A stretch of 64,000 nt of DNA from Escherichia phage ManiWeber_Bas99, in the sequence record PQ850618.1, one strand, 5' to 3'. How positions within the stretch are numbered: the first letter of the stretch is position 1; each line of letters opens with the position of its first letter. This document shows, piece by piece, positions 5,483-62,706 of this stretch. The notes beneath the pieces are model-generated. The model did not search any database. It saw only the letters and a list, made by a program, of their open reading frames with translations, and was not told the DNA's origin. A program made the translations under genes and the position numbers.

Positions 5483-6403
5483 ATGACGATACCAATCAAC
5501 ACATTCCCTCTATCTGGACAAACTCCAGTCTTGCCTGCGGTGTATGCTAATGGCTTGGCGATTGTCTCAGAATTCACTTCTGATAAAAACTTGATTGTTC
5601 CACTGAGCCCGCCGCTTGCATCGGGGTACAACTCAGTAGGTCAATTCTTTATGATTGGCAATGATGGCGATTCGACCAGCAAGCCTAATCTGACATTGTC
5701 TGTACCTAAGATGAACATCACCGACGTTCAAACTGGCTTGACTGCATCAACAATCACCATTGCTTTTGGAGAAGCAGTGATTATAGGAATGGAGTCTGGA
5801 GGGTCCAAGAATGCTGTCGCCGTTAAGGTAGTCAAATCCAGCGACAACCAATACACTTTACCAGCTGCGACGGCTTCCGTTCTCGGCGGCGTCAAAATAG
5901 GAAGCGGAATAAGCGTCGCAGGTGACGGTACAATTAGCGTCACTCAATACTCATTGCCGATTGCGTCAGCATCTACTTTAGGCGGCGTAAAGGTCGGTAC
6001 AACTCTATCAATTGATGGTTCCGGTGTGCTTAACGCAGCGGCAAGCACCGTCCAGAATGCCACGAACAGTGTTAGCAATCCTCCAACCACTTTGGTTAAT
6101 CTGGCAACATTAAACCTTCCTGCAGGCAAGTGGCTGGTCACGGCAAGCCAATTGACCGTTGCAACAGCAGGCGTTCAAGCGAATACCGGAATTACAGTCA
6201 AATTGTCAACAAGCAATTCAGATATTACGGATGATGCATTTACCATGTCAGCTGGCATTCGGGCTGCAGGTCGTTTCGGCGGCAACATCCCAACAAAAGT
6301 AATTACTCTTGCCGCGCCTGGTAATGTGTATTTAAACTATCAGTGCACCGACGCGTTGACATCTACCGTTTACGGACAGATCACCGCAATTAAGCTGAAC
6401 TAA
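5483..6403 (+). CDS. virion protein with tandem LGGVK(I/V)G repeats (fiber-like)
   Basis: ATG at 5483 with GAGGT SD; two repeats ASVLGGVKIGSGISVAGDGTISV and ASTLGGVKVGTTLSIDGSGVLNA; Gly/Thr/Ser-rich. Confidence 0.45.
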   Translation: MTIPINTFPLSGQTPVLPAVYANGLAIVSEFTSDKNLIVPLSPPLASGYNSVGQFFMIGNDGDSTSKPNLTLSVPKMNITDVQTGLTASTITIAFGEAVIIGMESGGSKNAVAVKVVKSSDNQYTLPAATASVLGGVKIGSGISVAGDGTISVTQYSLPIASASTLGGVKVGTTLSIDGSGVLNAAASTVQNATNSVSNPPTTLVNLATLNLPAGKWLVTASQLTVATAGVQANTGITVKLSTSNSDITDDAFTMSAGIRAAGRFGGNIPTKVITLAAPGNVYLNYQCTDALTSTVYGQITAIKLN

Positions 6404-6589
6404 AGAGGAAGTTATGCAAAAGATTATTCAGTCACGTTATGTTAAAGTGCGAAATATTAATTGCAACTCTTTGCTTTCTTGGAAATGGGCTGTTTATGAC
6501 TCGATGTTGATTGGCGTTTTAGTGGCAGGAGTGCTATTTAATATTCACTGAATTCATCGGCAAAGGATTGCCGAGAGTTTTATACGTAT

Positions 6590-6860
6590 AATGACGTATC
6601 ATCCGTATCAAGTAAGTTGTTGTTTTCAAAAGAATCTTACGGATGATACGGATGATACGCGTTGCCGCCGTACTATATAGGAATTCAAATAAATTAATTT
6701 AAAATTATATATCTAATTTAATTTTATTTTTTTATAAACTCTTATATGTGAAAAGTATCCGTATCATCCGTATCATCCGTATCACACCAGTGATAGCGCG
6801 GCTTATACACCGATACGGATAAAAATACGCCTCATTTTATCCGTATCATCCGTATCACAC
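6590..6860. repeat. iteron-like repeat element A
   Basis: Units of CATCCGTATCA in both orientations (6594-6610 forward, 6639-6660 reverse, 6756-6785 forward triple, 6811-6820 reverse, 6839-6858 forward) around an AT-rich core carrying GAATTC; homologous to the element at 58.7 kb. Confidence 0.6.
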
Positions 6861-6914
6861 TAATAAAGGCGCGGCTATATCGGTTGTTATACATATTCAA
6901 ACCATAATTATTGT

Positions 6915-6943
6915 TTGCCTAAGTTTTTTTCATTAGATATAAT
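6915..6943 (+). promoter_or_regulatory. sigma70-like promoter (TTGCCT-17-TATAAT) upstream of scaffold gene
   Basis: Hexamers at 6915-6920 and 6938-6943 with a 17-nt spacer, about 25 nt upstream of the start codon. Confidence 0.4.
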
Positions 6944-6966
6944 ACACAATACTTATTTGAGGGTGG

Positions 6967-8385
6967 ATGCGAATGCAAACGGCACGCGAAATTGACAAAA
7001 ATGGATTCTTGACGATTATGGGTTGTCCGATTTCGTCATTTGGCATTTTTGATTATTCTGCTGGTCAAGTTGGTCTTGATGGTGATCCGAATCGCATCGT
7101 AAAAGTCTATCGCCCTGAGTCAGCGGTGAAAGACCCCGAAGCGATAGATTCATTCAAAAATATCCCTTTCATCGACAATCACGAAATGCTTTCTGGATTT
7201 GAAGGTGATGAGGATAACACAGCACCCGAAGAGTATGGCGTTGATGGCGTTCTAACTGGCAATGTTTATTATGACAAGCCATGGATGCGCGGCGACCTTA
7301 AAGTGTTTAGCCGTCGTCTGAAGAAGGCCATTGATTCTGGAAAGGTTGACTTGTCTTTGGGCTATGACTGTGAATTCATCATACAGTCTGGAGAGTTTGA
7401 CGGGCAGCCGTATGAAGTGGTACAGACAACTCTTCGCGGCAACCACATTGCTCTCGTGGACGTTGGTCGAGTACCAGGTGCACGGGTGCTGGATGGTCGT
7501 TGCTTTGACCATCTTTGTTTGACGACTGTAACACCATCCAACGAGGATTTAGACATGCCAAAACCGTTAAAAGGTAAAGCGCGTGATAATGCTGTTGAAC
7601 AGCTGAAATCACTGATCCCTGCGCTCGAACAATTTCTGAATGAAGAGAGCACCGAAGCGGCTCATCAGGACGAAGTTGAAGTGAAAGCAGAAGAGAAGGA
7701 TTCAACCGAAGAACGTGAAGAAGTGATGGTTGATCCAGAAGTTAAAGCAGAAGCTGAAGAAACTCCAGAAGGTGAAGAGAAGTTTGAAGTTGAAACTGAA
7801 TCTCACGCTGGCGGCGAGCTTCCGCAACTGATCAGCCAAATCGAAGCACTTATTGCAAAACTGAAAGGTGGCGCGGTAGGTGATGAAGAAGAAGTTGAAG
7901 CCGAAGTCAAAGACGAAGAAGTTGAAGTCAAGGCTGAAGATGTATCACCTTGCGACAAAGCTGAAGATGTGGTTAGCGGCCTGCAAAACAGCAACGTAAA
8001 GGGGGCTTCGGTCGAAAAAGATGACAAACCGACAAAAGCGGCGAAAGCGTCGCCAGGTCCAGCAAAAGGGGAACACTCAATGGCATCTGATTCAGCAGTT
8101 GCTGCTTTCTACGCTGATTCTGCTCGTAAGAATAGCCTCTACCAGCGCCTGTCTAAAGTTGTTGGTGCCTTTGATCATGCAACTATGGACTCCAAGTCCG
8201 TAGCGAAATATGGCGCTAAAAAGTTAGGCTTGAAGTGCGTTGATGGTGCTGAGTTTGACGTGGTGGATAATTATCTGCGCGGCGTTGAACACGGTCAAAA
8301 ACAGCGTGTAGTCGCAAAACAAAAGGCCGCTGCGGATTCTGCAGCGACTGACGAAGCATTTGAAGCTTGGTTGAAAGGGGAATAA
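6967..8385 (+). CDS. scaffolding / prohead core protein
   Basis: 472 aa; N-terminal region resembles DUF2213-type phage head proteins (from memory, unverified); central acidic Glu/Lys/Val repeats typical of scaffold proteins; lies upstream of the capsid gene. Confidence 0.5.
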   Translation: MRMQTAREIDKNGFLTIMGCPISSFGIFDYSAGQVGLDGDPNRIVKVYRPESAVKDPEAIDSFKNIPFIDNHEMLSGFEGDEDNTAPEEYGVDGVLTGNVYYDKPWMRGDLKVFSRRLKKAIDSGKVDLSLGYDCEFIIQSGEFDGQPYEVVQTTLRGNHIALVDVGRVPGARVLDGRCFDHLCLTTVTPSNEDLDMPKPLKGKARDNAVEQLKSLIPALEQFLNEESTEAAHQDEVEVKAEEKDSTEEREEVMVDPEVKAEAEETPEGEEKFEVETESHAGGELPQLISQIEALIAKLKGGAVGDEEEVEAEVKDEEVEVKAEDVSPCDKAEDVVSGLQNSNVKGASVEKDDKPTKAAKASPGPAKGEHSMASDSAVAAFYADSARKNSLYQRLSKVVGAFDHATMDSKSVAKYGAKKLGLKCVDGAEFDVVDNYLRGVEHGQKQRVVAKQKAAADSAATDEAFEAWLKGE

Positions 8386-56758: not shown

Positions 56759-57087
56759 AATTGAAATGGTATGTGGACCCTGAGCCGACAGGCTCATACA
56801 GGTCATTCCAACGTCGCGGCTGGCCGATTTGTTACAGCGGCAATCCCGATAAAGAAGACTGCGAGGTGCTTGCCGCGATAGTAAGTCTTAATCATGACGG
56901 CTATGAAGGCCACTACGCGAGAGCAACCAACCTTCGTCTCAAGGTGCGCATCCATTTCAAGGTCGCAGGCGAGGACCGCACCGGACTCTCCAAGGAAGAG
57001 TTCAGCAGCATTGCCGAAGCAAAGGCATGGCTCAAGGCGTTCTACAAGAACAATCCTAAATTTTATCCAACTAAGGGTGCATTATGA
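56755..57087 (+). CDS. hypothetical protein
   Basis: 110 aa ORF. Confidence 0.45.
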   Translation: MKLKWYVDPEPTGSYRSFQRRGWPICYSGNPDKEDCEVLAAIVSLNHDGYEGHYARATNLRLKVRIHFKVAGEDRTGLSKEEFSSIAEAKAWLKAFYKNNPKFYPTKGAL

Positions 57088-57302
57088 CCGATAATCAATA
57101 CGCAGTCGGGCAACGTGACATCGAGCAACTCGACGAGGGCGGCTATTATACGCGCCACATCTATGCCATGACTCATGAAGGACTTTACAGCAAGTCGGAC
57201 ATCGCCGCTGAACTGGCCCATCGTGACTTGCAAATTGACCTTCTCAAGATAGAAATTCAAAACTTACGCAACACCCTGTTAAACACCTGGAGCTTAAAAT
57301 GA
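57084..57302 (+). CDS. hypothetical protein
   Basis: 72 aa ORF. Confidence 0.4.
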   Translation: MTDNQYAVGQRDIEQLDEGGYYTRHIYAMTHEGLYSKSDIAAELAHRDLQIDLLKIEIQNLRNTLLNTWSLK

Positions 57303-57724
57303 TACAGCGTTACGACCTGACATATGACGTGGCATCAGACGATTTCGCCGTCACTCCCGTTCCAGAAAGTCATGAAGGACGTTTTGTTGCATATGAGGAC
57401 TATGAATCACTACTCAAGCTTAATGAGTCGCTAACAAAAGAGATTGAGCAATACCGCGAGCGCATCAAAGCCGCTGAAGATGTTATCAAGCTTTTTAGCG
57501 AGGCTGTTGAGAAATACAAGGAGCGAAACGTACCGATTAAGGAGGAAGCGTGGACCGTGTGGTTTGGTGGCGTGAATCCGGTGCCTGGGAAGATGGTTGA
57601 GTTTGAATTACTCAACGGTTATAAGTCAAAAGGTGCTGTTCCTTCGGATAGTTTGACATGGGATAAAGTCACAAGCCCGACTGGTGCAAAGATTGTTGCT
57701 TATCGGGTCGTTAAGGAGGGGTGA
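57299..57724 (+). CDS. hypothetical protein with GG-NPVPGK / AYRVV C-terminal domain
   Basis: 141 aa; C-terminal WTVWFGGVNPVPGKMV...IVAYRVVKEG paralogous to the 55917 gene. Confidence 0.45.
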   Translation: MIQRYDLTYDVASDDFAVTPVPESHEGRFVAYEDYESLLKLNESLTKEIEQYRERIKAAEDVIKLFSEAVEKYKERNVPIKEEAWTVWFGGVNPVPGKMVEFELLNGYKSKGAVPSDSLTWDKVTSPTGAKIVAYRVVKEG

Positions 57725-58173
57725 TGGGTAACAAGCTTATCGCCGCTGGTTGGGCCATACCGAAGTGGGCTCATCGTGCGCACTACTTTGATGAAGGAGA
57801 AGTGCAAAGCCTTTGCGGTCGCGCAACGTATTTCGGTGATGAGCGCGTCAGCGGCGATTACATTGACTCGCTTTTAGGTAAAGGTGATTGCAAGAAATGT
57901 CAGGATATATTAAGAGATATTCTGACGCAAAAAGGATTGCTTGAGCTTGATGAGTCGGAGGAAGTAATAGAGCTTAAGCTTGAAGCCAATCACCTTATTA
58001 ATATGTTCAAGAATTATTACTTAACGAATATGCGCTCAAAGATGCGTGAGGAAGTAATAAAAGAGGTGCTCACTTACAATCCGTTAAGGATGAATAAAAC
58101 TAAACTGAAGAAGTTTAATGCAATGGTAAGAAAGGAATTTAGACGGCTTGGAGTGAAGAATTTTATATTTTAA
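57721..58173 (+). CDS. hypothetical protein
   Basis: 150 aa; last gene of the rightward early operon, followed by a terminator. Confidence 0.45.
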   Translation: MMGNKLIAAGWAIPKWAHRAHYFDEGEVQSLCGRATYFGDERVSGDYIDSLLGKGDCKKCQDILRDILTQKGLLELDESEEVIELKLEANHLINMFKNYYLTNMRSKMREEVIKEVLTYNPLRMNKTKLKKFNAMVRKEFRRLGVKNFIF

Positions 58174-58190
58174 TTATGATTAATGTTAAG

Positions 58191-58214
58191 AGGGCCAATC
58201 GGCCCTTTTTATTT
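58191..58214 (+). terminator. rho-independent terminator
   Basis: AGGGCC-AATC-GGCCCT hairpin followed by TTTTATTT. Confidence 0.6.
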
Positions 58215-58710
58215 GCCTGTGTAATGGGAGGCTTTTGTGGTTATTTACGATTCAAGGCTGTAATTTAAGAGAGCGAAAATATTATAATAATTTATCAAGA
58301 TTATTGCATATTGTGGCAATCAACGTTTATACGTATTTATGACAGTTTAATCCACTAAATAATACGGATAGAACAGTGAGGAAAATACAGCGGTGTATTT
58401 TAGTGTAAATATTGAATCAAAAATAAATAATTATGGTGCTATTATATACGCAGATTGTTTGTAATTTATAGGATATTTTATCGTGGAGTATTGGCTAACG
58501 GTGCGTTAGCCGTGGGTCTTGGTGCTTGTGGTGTTGATGCTCAGAATTTTAATAATGTTTTTAGTTTTAGTAATCGTAGTCAATGATGATACGTATAAGA
58601 AAATGAGAGTCACCCCTTCACAGGATATTGTACCGTGGCCCTGTGGCGCGCCGCGCCTGGGATTGCTGGTATACACTGGTGCTATTTTGCCGCGAAGGCA
58701 GTCATTCATA

Positions 58711-58952
58711 CGTATCATGACGTATCATTGGGCTATTGATTTATAAGGAAAAATACGCTGATACGGATGATACGGATGCAAACATAATATATATAGAATT
58801 CCAGAAAATTAATTAACTCCATTTTGAATTAATTTAAATTAATTTTTTTCTACATCCTCATACTTATACTAAACTTATATTTATACGTATTATCCGTAAG
58901 ATATAAGTAAAAACAAAGACTTGCGGCAATACGGATGATACGTCATGATACG
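58711..58952. repeat. iteron-like repeat element B
   Basis: CGTATCATGACGTATCA (58711-58727), GATACGGATGATACGGATG (58759-58778), AT-rich core with GAATTC, TTATCCGTAAG (58889-58899), ATACGGATGATACGTCATGATACG (58929-58952); same units and core as the element at 6.6 kb. Confidence 0.6.
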
Positions 58953-59166
58953 CTTCAACCAGCCAGCAGCGGCTAAGTCATTGATTTGCATAGCAAGCGG
59001 CGAAAGGGATGGATTTCTTTTATACGTATCAAACAGTACACCACGCACCACGGTCCGTTATCCATTCAGCAATATGATTTGTGTACGTTTATAGCCATAA
59101 TGAACATCAATCTGCACTTGAATATAATGTTCATCCATTGTATAATTCACACTATTAATTTGCACT

Positions 59167-59655
59167 ATGGGATTTTGCACTATGAGTCAAGATTATGTAG
59201 CGATGCCTGAAGACTTTGAAGACCCGCGATTTGCAGAGCACAATCAGGCTTTATTCGATGAGTTCATTGACCTTGTTATTCAGGGCCATGACATGCGCGC
59301 AGCTTTTGCACTAGTATTTGGAATGGAAGTTGCAACGGATAACTACACTGGCCAGCGAATCCTTTGCACGCAACGCAATCCATACTACAAGATGCGCTTC
59401 AAAAAGCGTATGGAAGAGATGCCACTCAAGGATTTGTGGAGCGTAAAAGGTGCAATTCACAATTTGGTTAAGCTTGTGCGTGATCCAGAAGTCGCAGCGT
59501 CAGCCAAGCTTAATGCTATTCGTGAACTGAATATCATCTACGGCATCACGATGATTGATGAAAACGGCAATAGTAAAATGGGCCGTTCCATGGACGATTT
59601 CTACAAGGATTTTGGAGAGGCGGCCAAAGAAGGTGAGCAATTCTCCCGCCACTAG
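59167..59655 (+). CDS. hypothetical protein
   Basis: 162 aa (alternative ATG at 59182); both candidate starts are immediately preceded by a copy of the TTTGCACTAT motif. Confidence 0.45.
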   Translation: MGFCTMSQDYVAMPEDFEDPRFAEHNQALFDEFIDLVIQGHDMRAAFALVFGMEVATDNYTGQRILCTQRNPYYKMRFKKRMEEMPLKDLWSVKGAIHNLVKLVRDPEVAASAKLNAIRELNIIYGITMIDENGNSKMGRSMDDFYKDFGEAAKEGEQFSRH

Positions 59656-59666
59656 CCAATTTGCAC

Positions 59667-59708
59667 TATAAAACGGCCCTAGAACACATCTTCTCCACTT
59701 CTAGGGCC
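59667..59708 (-). terminator. hairpin terminator candidate (10-bp stem GGCCCTAGAA/TTCTAGGGCC)
   Basis: Perfect 10-bp inverted repeat with a 14-nt loop between convergent genes; U-rich tract on the minus strand. Confidence 0.35.
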
Positions 59709-59769
59709 ATCGGTAATACGACGGGGAAGGTTACAACCATAAACGCGTTAGAAAGTGTATTATTATAAG

Positions 59770-60033
59770 TCATCTTTTAGTCACTTTACGTAACAATTTA
59801 CGACCTTCAGCCGTCCAATCGAACGACTCCACCAGCAGATTCGCACTATAACCTAAGATGATGCGCCCTTTCTCGTTATCGACCCGCCAACAAGTCTCGA
59901 ATAGCATTCGATTTGCACTATTAACTATCGCCGCAACGCGCGTAGGGTAAACGCAATTTGCACTATGGTCATAAAGGGATAAGGTGCGACCACTTCCGAT
60001 GGACAACGTAGCGATGAGAATGAGCGTATTCAT
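59770..60033 (-). CDS. hypothetical protein
   Basis: 87 aa; contains three in-frame SAN tripeptides encoded by the antisense of the repeated motif. Confidence 0.4.
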   Translation of the reverse strand: MNTLILIATLSIGSGRTLSLYDHSANCVYPTRVAAIVNSANRMLFETCWRVDNEKGRIILGYSANLLVESFDWTAEGRKLLRKVTKR

Positions 60034-60083
60034 AAGCCACCAATTTGCACTATGAAAAGCGACCCCGAAGGGCCGCCATTCGA

Positions 60084-60710
60084 TTAGATAATCTGGAAGG
60101 TGTAGGACTTGTTGCCGAACTCGAAGTTCAAGCGCCCAGCTTCCTTAAGCTTCATGCGGAAGCGAATGTGCTTGCTATCCGGTAATCCCAGCGCGGCGAA
60201 CGCTACGCGGACCGATTTGAACTCGCCTACACCCTCGACCATGACACCGTTACGGGTAAGACGCTTTTGCGCCACTTCCTTATTATCCCAGCTTTTTGCA
60301 ATACCTTCGCTATTCGAACGGCGATGGGAAGGAGTTCCATTTTGCACTACGCAATTTGCACTATCGTTTAAACCGCTCTTAACGAAGGCTTCATATTCTT
60401 CGTCGGTCATCGCGTCGAGTTCTTCCTGGGTCGGCTCAGCCTTTTTAACGACCGCACGCGCCTTATGCGTTTTTACATCGCTGGACACTTCCTCGCGCGA
60501 CTTCGCGTCTGGGATGGGCGATTCGTTGGACGGCTCATCTAGCGCGTTTAAGGACTCGATTAACGCGATGACGCGAGTCTCAGCGGTCCGGCGGTCCGAA
60601 AATTTCTTAATCGGCTTCGAACCGGAATTTGCATTATAAAATGCAACGAGGTCGGCGGTCTTAGTTGCGATAACGTCGCCGCTAGTCGAGAAACGATTTA
60701 AGCTAACCAT
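60084..60710 (-). CDS. hypothetical acidic protein
   Basis: 208 aa; SD AGGAG upstream of ATG; carries the motif as DSANCVVQ. Confidence 0.5.
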   Translation of the reverse strand: MVSLNRFSTSGDVIATKTADLVAFYNANSGSKPIKKFSDRRTAETRVIALIESLNALDEPSNESPIPDAKSREEVSSDVKTHKARAVVKKAEPTQEELDAMTDEEYEAFVKSGLNDSANCVVQNGTPSHRRSNSEGIAKSWDNKEVAQKRLTRNGVMVEGVGEFKSVRVAFAALGLPDSKHIRFRMKLKEAGRLNFEFGNKSYTFQII

Positions 60711-60790
60711 AATAAACTCCTATTTGTTAGGGCGCTAGGCGCGAAAGAATTTTATTAAAGCGCCGCGCACGACGCTCTAAAAATCCTCTC

Positions 60791-61075
60791 TTACGCTTCG
60801 ACGAGGGAGAAGGTCTCAAATTCTTCTTCGCCCATAACGAGTAAGATATTACCGATTTCGACCGCTTCGAAGAAATATCCGTTAACGTTTACTTCGAAGG
60901 CTTCGCGGTCCGATTCCGGTAGCGCCGCGTAAAGTTTAAAAGCCTCGGCGACCGTTACCCCACCCGCCTCGATAGTTTGGCCTACGTTCGCGGCGTAGAC
61001 TTCGGATAAAATTTGTTTTACGCCGTAGTTCTCGACGATAGCGTTACGAATAGAAGAAACGTTAAGAATAGCCAT
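60791..61075 (-). CDS. small protein, paralog family member 1
   Basis: 94 aa; N-terminus MAILNVSSIRN and internal VNVNGYFFEAVEIG parallel the 61710 gene; conserved CAACTAGGAG upstream. Confidence 0.5.
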   Translation of the reverse strand: MAILNVSSIRNAIVENYGVKQILSEVYAANVGQTIEAGGVTVAEAFKLYAALPESDREAFEVNVNGYFFEAVEIGNILLVMGEEEFETFSLVEA

Positions 61076-61299
61076 TTTAAACTCCTAGTTGGGAGAGGCG
61101 TTAACGACCTATTCGTTAACTCATCCCGTCCCGATATGAGTACATTATAATATAGTGTAGAAAAAAGTAAAGCACTTTTTCGATAAAAATGCGATAAATT
61201 ATTTTATCTTTTTTCTTTACTTCTTCGTACACTCGCGTATACTTGTTTATATCGAGACGGGCGATGGCCCTTTCTTCTACTAGCATCGGGAGCTTTATT

Positions 61300-61602
61300 A
61301 TGACTACTTTAATCTCTTCCATCCTTACTTACGACGAAGACCGCTTAACCGTTCGCTCTCTTATCGCCGCCGTTAACGCGGAACTAGAATCTAGCGCCAT
61401 TAAGGTCCGCGCGGTCGCCTTCATCGGCCTTTCCTTCGACGATATGAAGTATGCCGAACGTAGCGCCATCCGCTTCGCGAAGACCGACGACGAAGCCGTT
61501 ACCCTTATCGAGACGGTTACGCCGCGCGGCGAAGCGTTAATTATCGTCGAGTATATCGACGTAGAAGGCGATAAATCTTATAAACATTTTATCGCAGAAT
61601 AA
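61300..61602 (+). CDS. small protein, paralog family member 2
   Basis: 100 aa from ATG 61300 (GGGAG SD); MTTLISSIL... with conserved upstream TTTACTTCTTCGTACACT box. Confidence 0.5.
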   Translation: MTTLISSILTYDEDRLTVRSLIAAVNAELESSAIKVRAVAFIGLSFDDMKYAERSAIRFAKTDDEAVTLIETVTPRGEALIIVEYIDVEGDKSYKHFIAE

Positions 61603-61709
61603 CGAAAAAGTGCTTTACTTCTTCGTACACTAAGACTATAATGTTTTATATCGAGAGGGGATGAGGTAGCGAATAGGTCGCTGCCCTCCCGACCAACTAG
61701 GAGATTATT

Positions 61710-62000
61710 ATGATTACTTTAGCCGCTATCCGTTCCGCTCGCGTCGAGACTTCCGAAAACTCTAACGTATTTGGCGAAACCTTAGAGAGCGTTTATCTCT
61801 CTAACGTAGACGCAACTATCGAATCCATTTATGAGCCGATCAACTTCCTCGACCTTTACAAGTATCGCGATGAGGACATCGTGTCTTGCCGCGTAACGAT
61901 CAACGGCTTCGTCTATACGATTACCGAAATCGGCGGCGAATATCTCGCGGTCCCGCAACTCGGCGGCGAAGTAACTTATTTTAAAATCGTCTCCTTATAA
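61710..62000 (+). CDS. small protein, paralog family member 3
   Basis: 96 aa; MITLAAIRS...VTINGFVYTITEIGGEYLAV; conserved upstream box and CAACTAGGAG SD. Confidence 0.5.
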   Translation: MITLAAIRSARVETSENSNVFGETLESVYLSNVDATIESIYEPINFLDLYKYRDEDIVSCRVTINGFVYTITEIGGEYLAVPQLGGEVTYFKIVSL

Positions 62001-62019
62001 TACCCTTCCGTTACTAATA

Positions 62020-62045
62020 GGCCGCGCTTAGTCGCGGCTTTTCTT
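62020..62045 (+). terminator. rho-independent terminator
   Basis: GCCGCG-CTTAGT-CGCGGC hairpin followed by TTTTCTT. Confidence 0.55.
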
Positions 62046-62642
62046 CGCCCCTATCTCGGTGCGCTCCTACGCGAAAACTCCTTTATCCTTACCTTCGTCG
62101 TCGCATAATCTTCGTCGAGATGCTCCTTAGTTCGCATAACAGGTATTACGTTAAATGGAGAACATCGCGTAAGTCGTTGTTTTATATAGACACCTATATC
62201 GGACCGTTAGCGAGGGTCGCGTAAGTCGTTGTTTTATAAAGGCGCAAAACTTTCCCTTCGTTCCGAACTAAAACGAGGAATATGCCGACCCTTCGCCCGA
62301 AAATAGTACGCATGCGATATTACCGACATCTAGAATAATCCCTCCCGATATTATTACGCGCTCAATCATTAGCTTTCGAATCATTATGCTGCATACTATT
62401 ATGCGCCAAATCATTAGCCTTCGAATTGTAACGCTGGAAACTGTAACGTCGATTGATTATTGCGTTCGTGTGGTTTTTAGGACATGGGTCTTTTGGTGCG
62501 TTTTGCTACTTGATGGAATTTGCAGTACACTAATCAAAATACGACACATTTGGTCCACTAACTTTTCAAAGAAAAAGTCCTAGACAGTACCGTACTATTT
62601 TGTACCCACAGGAAATTTGCCGTACACTCCTGCGCGGCAGGC

Positions 62643-62670
62643 AAAAATAAAGGGCCGCACTAAGCGACCC
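62643..62670 (-). terminator. rho-independent terminator
   Basis: Minus-strand GGGTCGC-TTAGT-GCGGCCC hairpin followed by TTTATTTTT, downstream of the 62707 gene. Confidence 0.55.
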
Positions 62671-62706
62671 ACAACCCACGATTCACGGTTAAATCAGCAA
62701 CACCCA

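Follow-up and report, generated by a model that had tools for sequence, protein, structure and literature searches.

Within the genus Wifcevirus, which comprises myoviruses of about 68 kb, terminal repeats of about 3.7 kb have been described for phages WFC and WFH (PMC6563267), and a repeat of 3,533 bp was determined with PhageTerm for phage Ro157lw (PMC6454146); how such long terminal repeats are generated is stated in the latter work as not known. In the genus Pbunavirus, a putative packaging (pac) site at position 59,376 of phage JG024 is supported by a pac restriction fragment (PMC10913387), and a review (PMC9611059) lists a decameric cryo-electron microscopy structure of the small terminase of Pbunavirus E217, the gene of which, according to the same review, maps far from the large terminase gene. 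Here we analyse a window of 64,000 nucleotides (nt) from Escherichia phage ManiWeber_Bas99 (record PQ850618.1; all unattributed positions refer to this window), and in particular the region 58175-59166, which contains a mirror-symmetric element of short repeats (iterons) around an AT-rich core. That the Wifcevirus repeat of about 3.7 kb starts here is already contained in GenBank records and in three papers. From our point of view, this structure, hereafter element B (about 58700-59032), is probably, though by no means certainly, the cis-acting packaging-initiation and terminus site that makes the left genome end.

Judged by its sequence, the source phage of the window is a Wifcevirus. Escherichia phage HermannAdler_Bas98 (Bas98) is 98.6% identical over 58175-59166, and 27 further Wifcevirus records match the region only from about its position 585 onwards, also when the search was repeated at higher sensitivity; the window starts near the large terminase gene, as does the Bas98 record. 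The genome ends of three relatives were determined independently and come from three papers (PMC6753283, PMC6454146, PMC6563267), with PhageTerm having been used for Mansfield and Ro157lw. Judged by their first 40 bases, the records of Mansfield, WFH and Ro157lw all begin at the base homologous to position 58821 (40/40 for WFH), and the final 40 nt of WFH and of Ro157lw fall on 62454-62493 with one mismatch. Since the relatives' records start at 58821 and end at 62493, the direct terminal repeat of this phage would span 58821-62493 (3,673 bp, present as a single copy in this circularised record), and its left end would lie inside the region. The putative physical left terminus, the first base of the repeat, falls at 58820/58821 within the 22-nt central loop of nested dyads (...AATTAACTCC|ATTTTGAATTAATTT, or, over a longer stretch, ...AATTAACTCC|ATTTTGAATT). 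In WFH and Ro157lw, whose records hold both copies, the ends are identical with fixed boundaries, the right end matching the left copy at 40/40 positions. The repeat lengths differ (3,701, 3,533 and 3,673 bp), yet all repeats stop at one common sequence, so that both boundaries appear to be sequence-specific. We therefore regard it as likely that 58175-59166 is where the unique genome finishes on its right side and the terminal repeat starts, with a virion DNA end predicted, by homology, within element B.

Element B proper (58701-59032) consists of a left arm at 58708-58779, which contains CATACGTATCATGACGTATCAT and GATACGGATGATACGGATG, a core at 58780-58880 with a GC content of 17% (46% in the window), and a right arm made up of 58881-58898, 58927-58953 and 59018-59032. 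The arm units read GATACG(G/T)AT and are partly arranged in tandem at 9-10 bp spacing. Across the window, ATACGKAT occurs 26 times, where 2.4 +/- 1.7 occurrences are expected, and it does so in two clusters only, 6582-6855 and 58329-59029, the former belonging to a sister copy, element A. The region holds 19 copies of the pentamer ATACG and element A holds 13, compared with about one per 500 nt elsewhere; the count peaks at 13 per 500-nt bin at both elements, the mean being 1 per bin. The inverted repeats are nested between 58711 and 58952, with arms of 19 bp (58711-58729/58934-58952, 18 nt of them perfect), 13 bp (58762-58774/58886-58898) and 11 bp (58804-58814/58837-58847), and have their centres at 58825.5-58831.5. 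When 58700-58960 is folded as a single DNA strand, nested helices result (z = -5.0 against shuffled sequences). One continuous long palindrome was considered and rejected, as the symmetry consists of separate inverted blocks. Further inverted pairs enclose the element: ACCGTGG..GTGG / CCACGCACCACGG, of which the left member lies at 58631-58644 and the right one at 59039-59056 (CCACGCACCACGGTCC), and GCCGCGCCTGG (58650, + strand) / GCCGCTGCTGG (58963, - strand). The GC motif at 58645-58657 has an inverted partner at 58963-58973. GCCGC motifs stand on the left and GCGGC motifs on the right.

The initial annotation, made from the letters of the window alone, had recorded an iteron element B here, and the repeats do exceed chance by far. 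It had also listed ATACGTAT palindromes, which we find at 58329, 58589, 58708, 58883 and 59022 (five of the six sites in the window). Its palindromes are real, but from about 58700 rightward the inverted iterons and the ATACGTAT sites form one nested dyad centred on the putative cut and are not independent features. Its description of a regulatory region agrees with the non-coding, palindrome- and iteron-rich character of this DNA and with its limits, a terminator at one side (left) and promoter-like sites at the other, but missed the genome end and the boundary of the terminal repeat.

From about 58750 rightward, element B is 91-94% conserved in all 28 Wifcevirus records, and the jump from unalignable sequence to this level lies about 70 nt to the left of the putative cut. 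The central sequence TTAACTCC|ATTTTGA is invariant and is retained even in a relative with 69% identity in the small terminase subunit (TerS). Counted from the cut, the intervals +81 to +120 and +321 to +360 contain one variable site each among 11 genomes. A scan of viral contigs for GATACGKATGATACG gave multiple matches in Wifcevirus contigs only, all others being single chance matches. For host factors, the consensus of the integration host factor (IHF) matched once in element B and not in element A.

The gene that follows, called the first right-end gene in the initial annotation, is the small terminase gene and occupies the leftmost part of the terminal repeat. It encodes a TerS of 157 aa (59182-59655, + strand; phrog_4783), and a profile of this protein and seven homologues (eight sequences in total) matched PDB 7uxe_A, 'Small terminase', with E=7.6e-68. 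The entry 7UXE comprises ten chains and may correspond to the E217 structure. Of 49 substitutions in the gene, 43 fall on the third codon position. The putative cut lies 361 nt upstream of the gene and hence beside a small terminase gene. Between element B and TerS, at 59147-59183 (+ strand), stand the first three copies of a motif of the form (A/T)TT(T/C)(G/A)CACTAT, namely TTCACACTAT, ATTTGCACTAT and TTTTGCACTAT; the first ATTTGCACTAT copies that had been assigned to the region are indeed present, at 59158 and 59173. The whole ATTTGCACTAT array extends over 59147-60637 with nine copies at no more than one mismatch (2.0 expected), all on the + strand, and lies inside the terminal repeat, several copies being located within minus-strand genes. 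Same-strand motifs akin to the array also occur between element B and the terminase gene in more distant relatives (TGCACTA variants in the metagenomic relative L019; three copies of AACACTCA in Pbunavirus). Possibly, the array acts as a polar signal for packaging or binding.

On these grounds, we picture the function of element B as follows. A sequence-specific protein, most likely the ring-shaped small terminase, would assemble on the iterons on either side of the core, and their tandem arrangement at 9-10 bp would suit wrapping of the DNA around an oligomer. The bound protein would distort the readily melted core, the large terminase would cut in the central loop, and packaging would then proceed to the right through the repeat, crossing the ATTTGCACTAT array on its one strand, until it stops one genome length further on at the second sequence-specific boundary, 62493, which would yield the terminal repeat. 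For all steps beyond the mapped end, i.e., the binder, the melting or bending of the core, the rightward packaging and the stop at 62493, we infer the course of events by analogy to the pac sites of P1 and SPP1 (for the latter, PMC9611059) and to lambda cos.

Several points weigh against this interpretation. The terminus has been placed in this genome by homology to the ends of relatives, and both the direction of packaging and the route by which the repeat would be duplicated are transferred from other phages. According to the review PMC9611059, the homologous small terminase of E217 showed no appreciable binding in vitro to the DNAs used in that assay. Iterons that flank an AT-rich core are equally a hallmark of replication origins. 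Finally, element A possesses the iterons of element B and a similar core, yet it is not a known Wifcevirus end. As element A carries iterons without being a known end, iterons alone would not be sufficient for cutting, and it may be the central TTAACTCC|ATTTTGA, specific to element B, that specifies where the cut is made.

A different function could be imagined from the two overlapping sigma70-like promoters at 59101-59146 (+ strand; TGAACA-16-TATAAT and TTGAAT-17-TATAAT, 36-54 nt upstream of TerS), which are recognised by consensus match and are invariant in sequence in 11 relatives. In line with the regulatory region of the initial annotation, the iterons might be operators or enhancers through which a phage regulator controls the late promoters, with element B acting on the terminase gene and element A on the operon of head protease, scaffold and capsid. 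Both elements are indeed located 260-360 nt upstream of a late gene on the + strand, from which a sigma70-like promoter separates them, element A of Pbunavirus has annotated sigma70 promoter predictions, and GCCGCGCCTGGG at 58650 resembles the CTGGG core of the phage-specific promoters of Pbunavirus 14-1 (PMC10914365). However, at least ten iterons over 330 nt, centred 260-360 nt away from the genes, are unlike known phage operators, the core of element B contains no promoter-like match, and sigma70 consensus matches occur at chance density (17 against 12.7 expected). A purely transcriptional control region would explain the flanking promoters but not a DNA end at the centre of the dyad, and we consider it very unlikely.

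The packaging-initiation site that we favour for element B gains further plausibility from a comparison with other genera. In L019 (69% terminase identity), the layout of element B is retained, including TTAACTCCATTTTGA, and an inverted pair comparable to 58631-58644/59039-59056 is formed by two copies of GAACCGTGAACTGTGGTG and by CACCACGTTACACGGTTC. In L020, likewise metagenomic (51% terminase identity), ACGGAT/ATCCGT around an A/T-rich core has been kept. Pantoea phage Kyle (43%) and the Pbunavirus phages PS44 and JG024 (41%) have gaps at the positions of both element A and element B. The left end of the Kyle record falls in the AT-rich core of its element B, and base 59,376 of JG024, the putative pac site, differs by 1 nt from the position at which the PS44 record begins and borders the core of the Pbunavirus element B; several other Pbunavirus records begin about 616 nt ahead of TerS. 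A DNA end or initiation cut hence maps into element B in three genera, both where packaging is reported to yield exact repeats (Wifcevirus, Kyle) and where it is reported to be headful (Pbunavirus).

The sister copy, element A (6553-6975), lies about 16 kb from element B among the head genes and is composed of iterons at 6582-6660, a core at 6672-6755 (12% GC) and inverted iterons at 6757-6855; it contains a perfect inverted repeat of 22 nt. A terminator-like hairpin is found on its left (6557-6574) and a sigma70-like promoter on its right (6915-6943), where the gene of the head maturation protease follows. Elements A and B can be aligned over about 340 nt with 77% column identity (BLAST: E=2.5e-12 in plus-strand and E=1e-10 in minus-strand orientation). 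All 28 Wifcevirus records contain element A with 96-99% conservation, and in the curated Mansfield annotation it is the sole sizeable gap in a late operon of 26 kb. Existing records annotate it at most as predicted promoters or as an unnamed repeat.

The two elements also resemble each other within the genomes of other genera, with E=1.2e-21 in Kyle and E=1.1e-17 over 306 nt in Pbunavirus, whereas A-to-A and B-to-B comparisons between genera were not significant. The iterons themselves differ from genus to genus: in the DNA that was examined, all 17 copies of GGTTATT in Kyle lie in element A or B, as do all copies of GTAATT(T)GG in Pbunavirus (5/5 in PS44 and 4/4 in JG024), where the iteron takes the form GTAATTTGG. 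Based on these comparisons, elements A and B are in concerted evolution within each genus and carry genus-specific iterons, which points either to one shared binding protein or to repeated gene conversion.

Since its architecture would fit equally well, a role of both elements as replication origins has to be taken seriously. A phage initiator would bind the iterons and melt the core, and the genome end in element B would then result from origin-coupled packaging or repeat duplication, or simply from proximity. Inverted iterons, at least three of them beside the AT-rich element as in iteron-type origins, flank a core of about 100 bp with 12-17% GC; each genome has two copies, a feature shared between genera; both copies are insulated by a terminator upstream and a promoter downstream; and in Pbunavirus and in phage MyoSmar, a VirE/VapE-type primase gene abuts element B. 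Precedents are oriL/oriR of SPP1, ori/crr of P4, the ori of staphylococcal pathogenicity islands (SaPI), in which iterons flank an AT-rich region next to rep, and oriS of herpes simplex virus (HSV). Common to these systems and to elements A and B are iterons that flank an AT-rich core, two dispersed copies and iterons specific to the element, the two copies in the known origins being bound by one protein. Unlike in those origins, a DNA end lies in the core, and an initiator gene is not consistently adjacent, the VapE-like gene being about 8 kb away from element B in the enterobacterial relatives (L019). DnaA boxes are not enriched in the window (50 against 63 expected), and GC skew tracks the orientation of the genes and gives no information on an origin. 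Moreover, the only functional datum, the DNA ends in three genera, concerns packaging. An origin would be compatible with a packaging role and would not exclude it; as the explanation for both elements, we regard it as unlikely, albeit a serious possibility.

Returning to packaging, one could speculate that elements A and B form a coupled pair of terminase-recognition sites, kept by concerted evolution across a PB1-like supergroup (Wifcevirus, Kylevirus and Pbunavirus), that packaging or repeat formation needs both of them, and that this shared two-site system was the basis on which headful packaging gave way to exact long repeats. Two small terminase rings might synapse, or element A might serve as a conditional second cut or checkpoint about 16 kb into the packaged DNA. 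We hold this extension to be distinctly unlikely. A hint that element A can be an end comes from Pbunavirus E215 (NC_042080, 1-329 and 66607-66789; L027/L028), the record of which is linearised within the AT-rich core of its own element A, at a distance of 13 alignment columns from the counterpart of the pac cut in element B. The break may have arisen in assembly or may mark a genuine second end, and the describing paper gives no reason for it.

To the left of element B, the region has a different character. An intrinsic terminator (58188-58218, + strand) closes the rightward operon of small genes; in accordance with the initial annotation, which had placed a terminator here, folding yields a hairpin at 58188-58209 with a 9-bp stem and a 4-nt loop (dG -14.1 kcal/mol, z = -2.7), followed by a U-tract, and the WFH record annotates a terminator at the equivalent site. 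The sequence between 58219 and 58700, the rightmost part of the unique genome, is a hypervariable non-coding spacer, which is shared with Bas98 only and is absent as such from the 27 other Wifcevirus records. The spacers of these relatives represent at least three other versions that cannot be aligned, in which ATACG motifs and an island of GCGCCG-N3-CTGG are nevertheless present. In the present phage, the spacer contains outlying iterons (58329, 58362, 58446 and 58589), a conserved island at 58631-58662 (ACCGTGG..GTGG and GCGCCGCGCCTGGGATT) and a GGCTAAC-N5-GTTAGCC hairpin at 58493-58511. The latter had been recorded as GGCTAAC-GGTGC-GTTAGCC and is present, and the GC palindrome GGCGCGCC-GCGCC exists as well, although at 58645-58657, about 9 nt from the 58636-58650 first given. 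As to the conservation of palindromes in relatives, which had been proposed as a check, the dyads of element B are conserved, but this hairpin and the GC palindrome lie in the hypervariable spacer.

The last gene to the left of the region (57721-58173) encodes a protein of 150 aa with a Cys-X2-Cys motif (phrog_2358). Identity within the genus falls to 26-37%, so that the gene has to be counted among the hypervariable DNA with which the unique genome ends on the right. Its product was considered as the iteron binder and rejected, as it shows 26% identity within the genus while the iterons are constant, and as no counterpart is found ahead of element B in Kyle or L019.

One might ask whether the region encodes a structured small RNA or else small proteins, of which Bas98 genes 0091-0095 (window about 58199-59094) and Mansfield gene 001 are annotated examples. 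Open reading frames (ORFs) of 43-75 aa do exist, and the only one in the conserved part (58945-59094, 49-52 aa), which the Bas98 and Mansfield records annotate, remains open in 10 of 11 relatives. However, its variable sites are distributed 14:8:5 over the three codon positions, as opposed to 5:1:43 in the adjoining terminase gene, and its ATG sits within an iteron and is lost in phage Bas101. The left-half ORFs form a different set in each lineage of relatives. None of six internal ORFs matched PHROGs or Pfam, no Rfam covariance model matched within 57000-61000 even at a permissive E<=1, a scan for tRNA and tmRNA found none, and the RNA fold of 58440-58760 gave no structure signal (z = +0.7). 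With no family match, no codon-position bias, unstable left-half ORFs and no signal from Rfam, tRNA or RNA structure, the non-coding nature of 58175-59166 is supported, the annotated small coding sequences, which have no family match and no codon-position signal, are probably spurious, and a coding or small-RNA function can be given next to no weight.

This agrees with the initial annotation, which had seen about 1 kb without a convincing ORF and had dismissed the predicted ORFs as spurious. Its overlapping pair on opposite strands exists (58506-58718, - strand, and 58519-58746, + strand), with the minus-strand ORF ending at 58718 instead of 58746. The covariance-model search it suggested returned nothing, and the size of the non-coding stretch, which it had called unusual, is no oddity of this one genome. 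Relatives keep comparable gaps, with 480-650 nt before the terminal repeat and about 360 nt after its start, and a second gene-free stretch of about 700 nt (62001-62706) contains the right repeat boundary, 62493. This second stretch has direct repeats of its own that are unrelated to those of element B (CGCGTAAGTCGTTGTTTTATA and AATCATTAGCYTTCGAAT, two copies each) and no ATACG iterons.

Some short motifs around the elements deserve mention in their own right. GCCGCNNCTGG forms an inverted pair around element B (58650-58660, + strand; 58963-58973, - strand), with a further site at 6311 (+ strand), and MyoSmar has GGTGCGCCGCGACTGGG and CCCAGCTGCGGCGCACC at equal relative places. As a genome-wide promoter motif, GCCGCNNCTGG was judged weak and rejected, there being only four exact sites. 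The heptamer GCGGCAA occurs 46 times on both strands of the whole window (13.2 +/- 3.7 expected), for example at 58687-58693 (minus) and 58923-58929 (plus). Around the cores of both element A and element B, the shorter motif is segregated by orientation, with GCCGC to the left and GCGGC to the right, and similar flanking motifs are found in Kyle, MyoSmar and Pbunavirus.

Overall, ordinary phage biology accounts for most of the region, and the unexplained feature is the twin element A/B. In the searchable literature, we found no description of the iteron and dyad structure at the repeat boundary, of its homology to the pac region of Pbunavirus or of the co-evolving internal copy. The recognition and cutting of DNA by phages with long exact terminal repeats are poorly understood. 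For small terminases of the E217 type, of which a structure exists, GATACG(G/T)AT iterons in nested dyads around a mapped cut represent a candidate DNA target, and the sister genera offer variants in specificity. The conserved and co-evolving second copy inside the head-gene operon is not explained by any annotation. Phages of both Wifcevirus and Pbunavirus have been used or suggested for therapy and synthetic rebooting, which makes their exact cis-acting packaging signals relevant to genome design as well.

Among known systems, T4 offers a parallel for the presence of two copies. In the 'twin-ring pac synapsis' model for its terminase, as presented in PMC9611059, there are likewise two related sites per genome that are possibly joined by the small terminase. 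The T4 sites are short and lie inside genes, whereas elements A and B are of about 340 nt and occupy intergenic gaps, and a synapsis between them is hypothetical. In the pac site of P1, repeated motifs flank the cleavage region. Like P1 pac and SPP1 pac (pacL-pacC-pacR), element B has short repeats on both sides of a central cleavage position and is situated in or next to the small terminase gene. It differs from them in that the far end is also sequence-specific, giving an exact repeat of 3.67 kb instead of headful permutation, in that its arms are nested dyads, in that a non-terminal paralogue, element A, exists, and in that its binder is putative; SPP1 pac is described in PMC9611059. With lambda cos, the locus shares the order of cut, repeated sites and small terminase gene, the ATTTGCACTAT copies taking the position of cosB and continuing beyond the gene. 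The order in lambda is cosQ-cosN-cosB, followed by Nu1. In contrast to lambda, the Wifcevirus ends are non-cohesive, and the array extends over 1.5 kb and through genes on the opposite strand. The repeat boundaries of T5 are not known to carry an iteron and dyad element of this kind. Ro157lw has been classed as a phage with long direct terminal repeats of the T5 type (PMC6454146), and a non-permuted genome with an exact multi-kb repeat is indeed common to both. Unlike in the T5 type, however, the putative initiation element of Wifcevirus is shared with relatives, the Pbunavirus phages, that are reported to package headful, permuted genomes.

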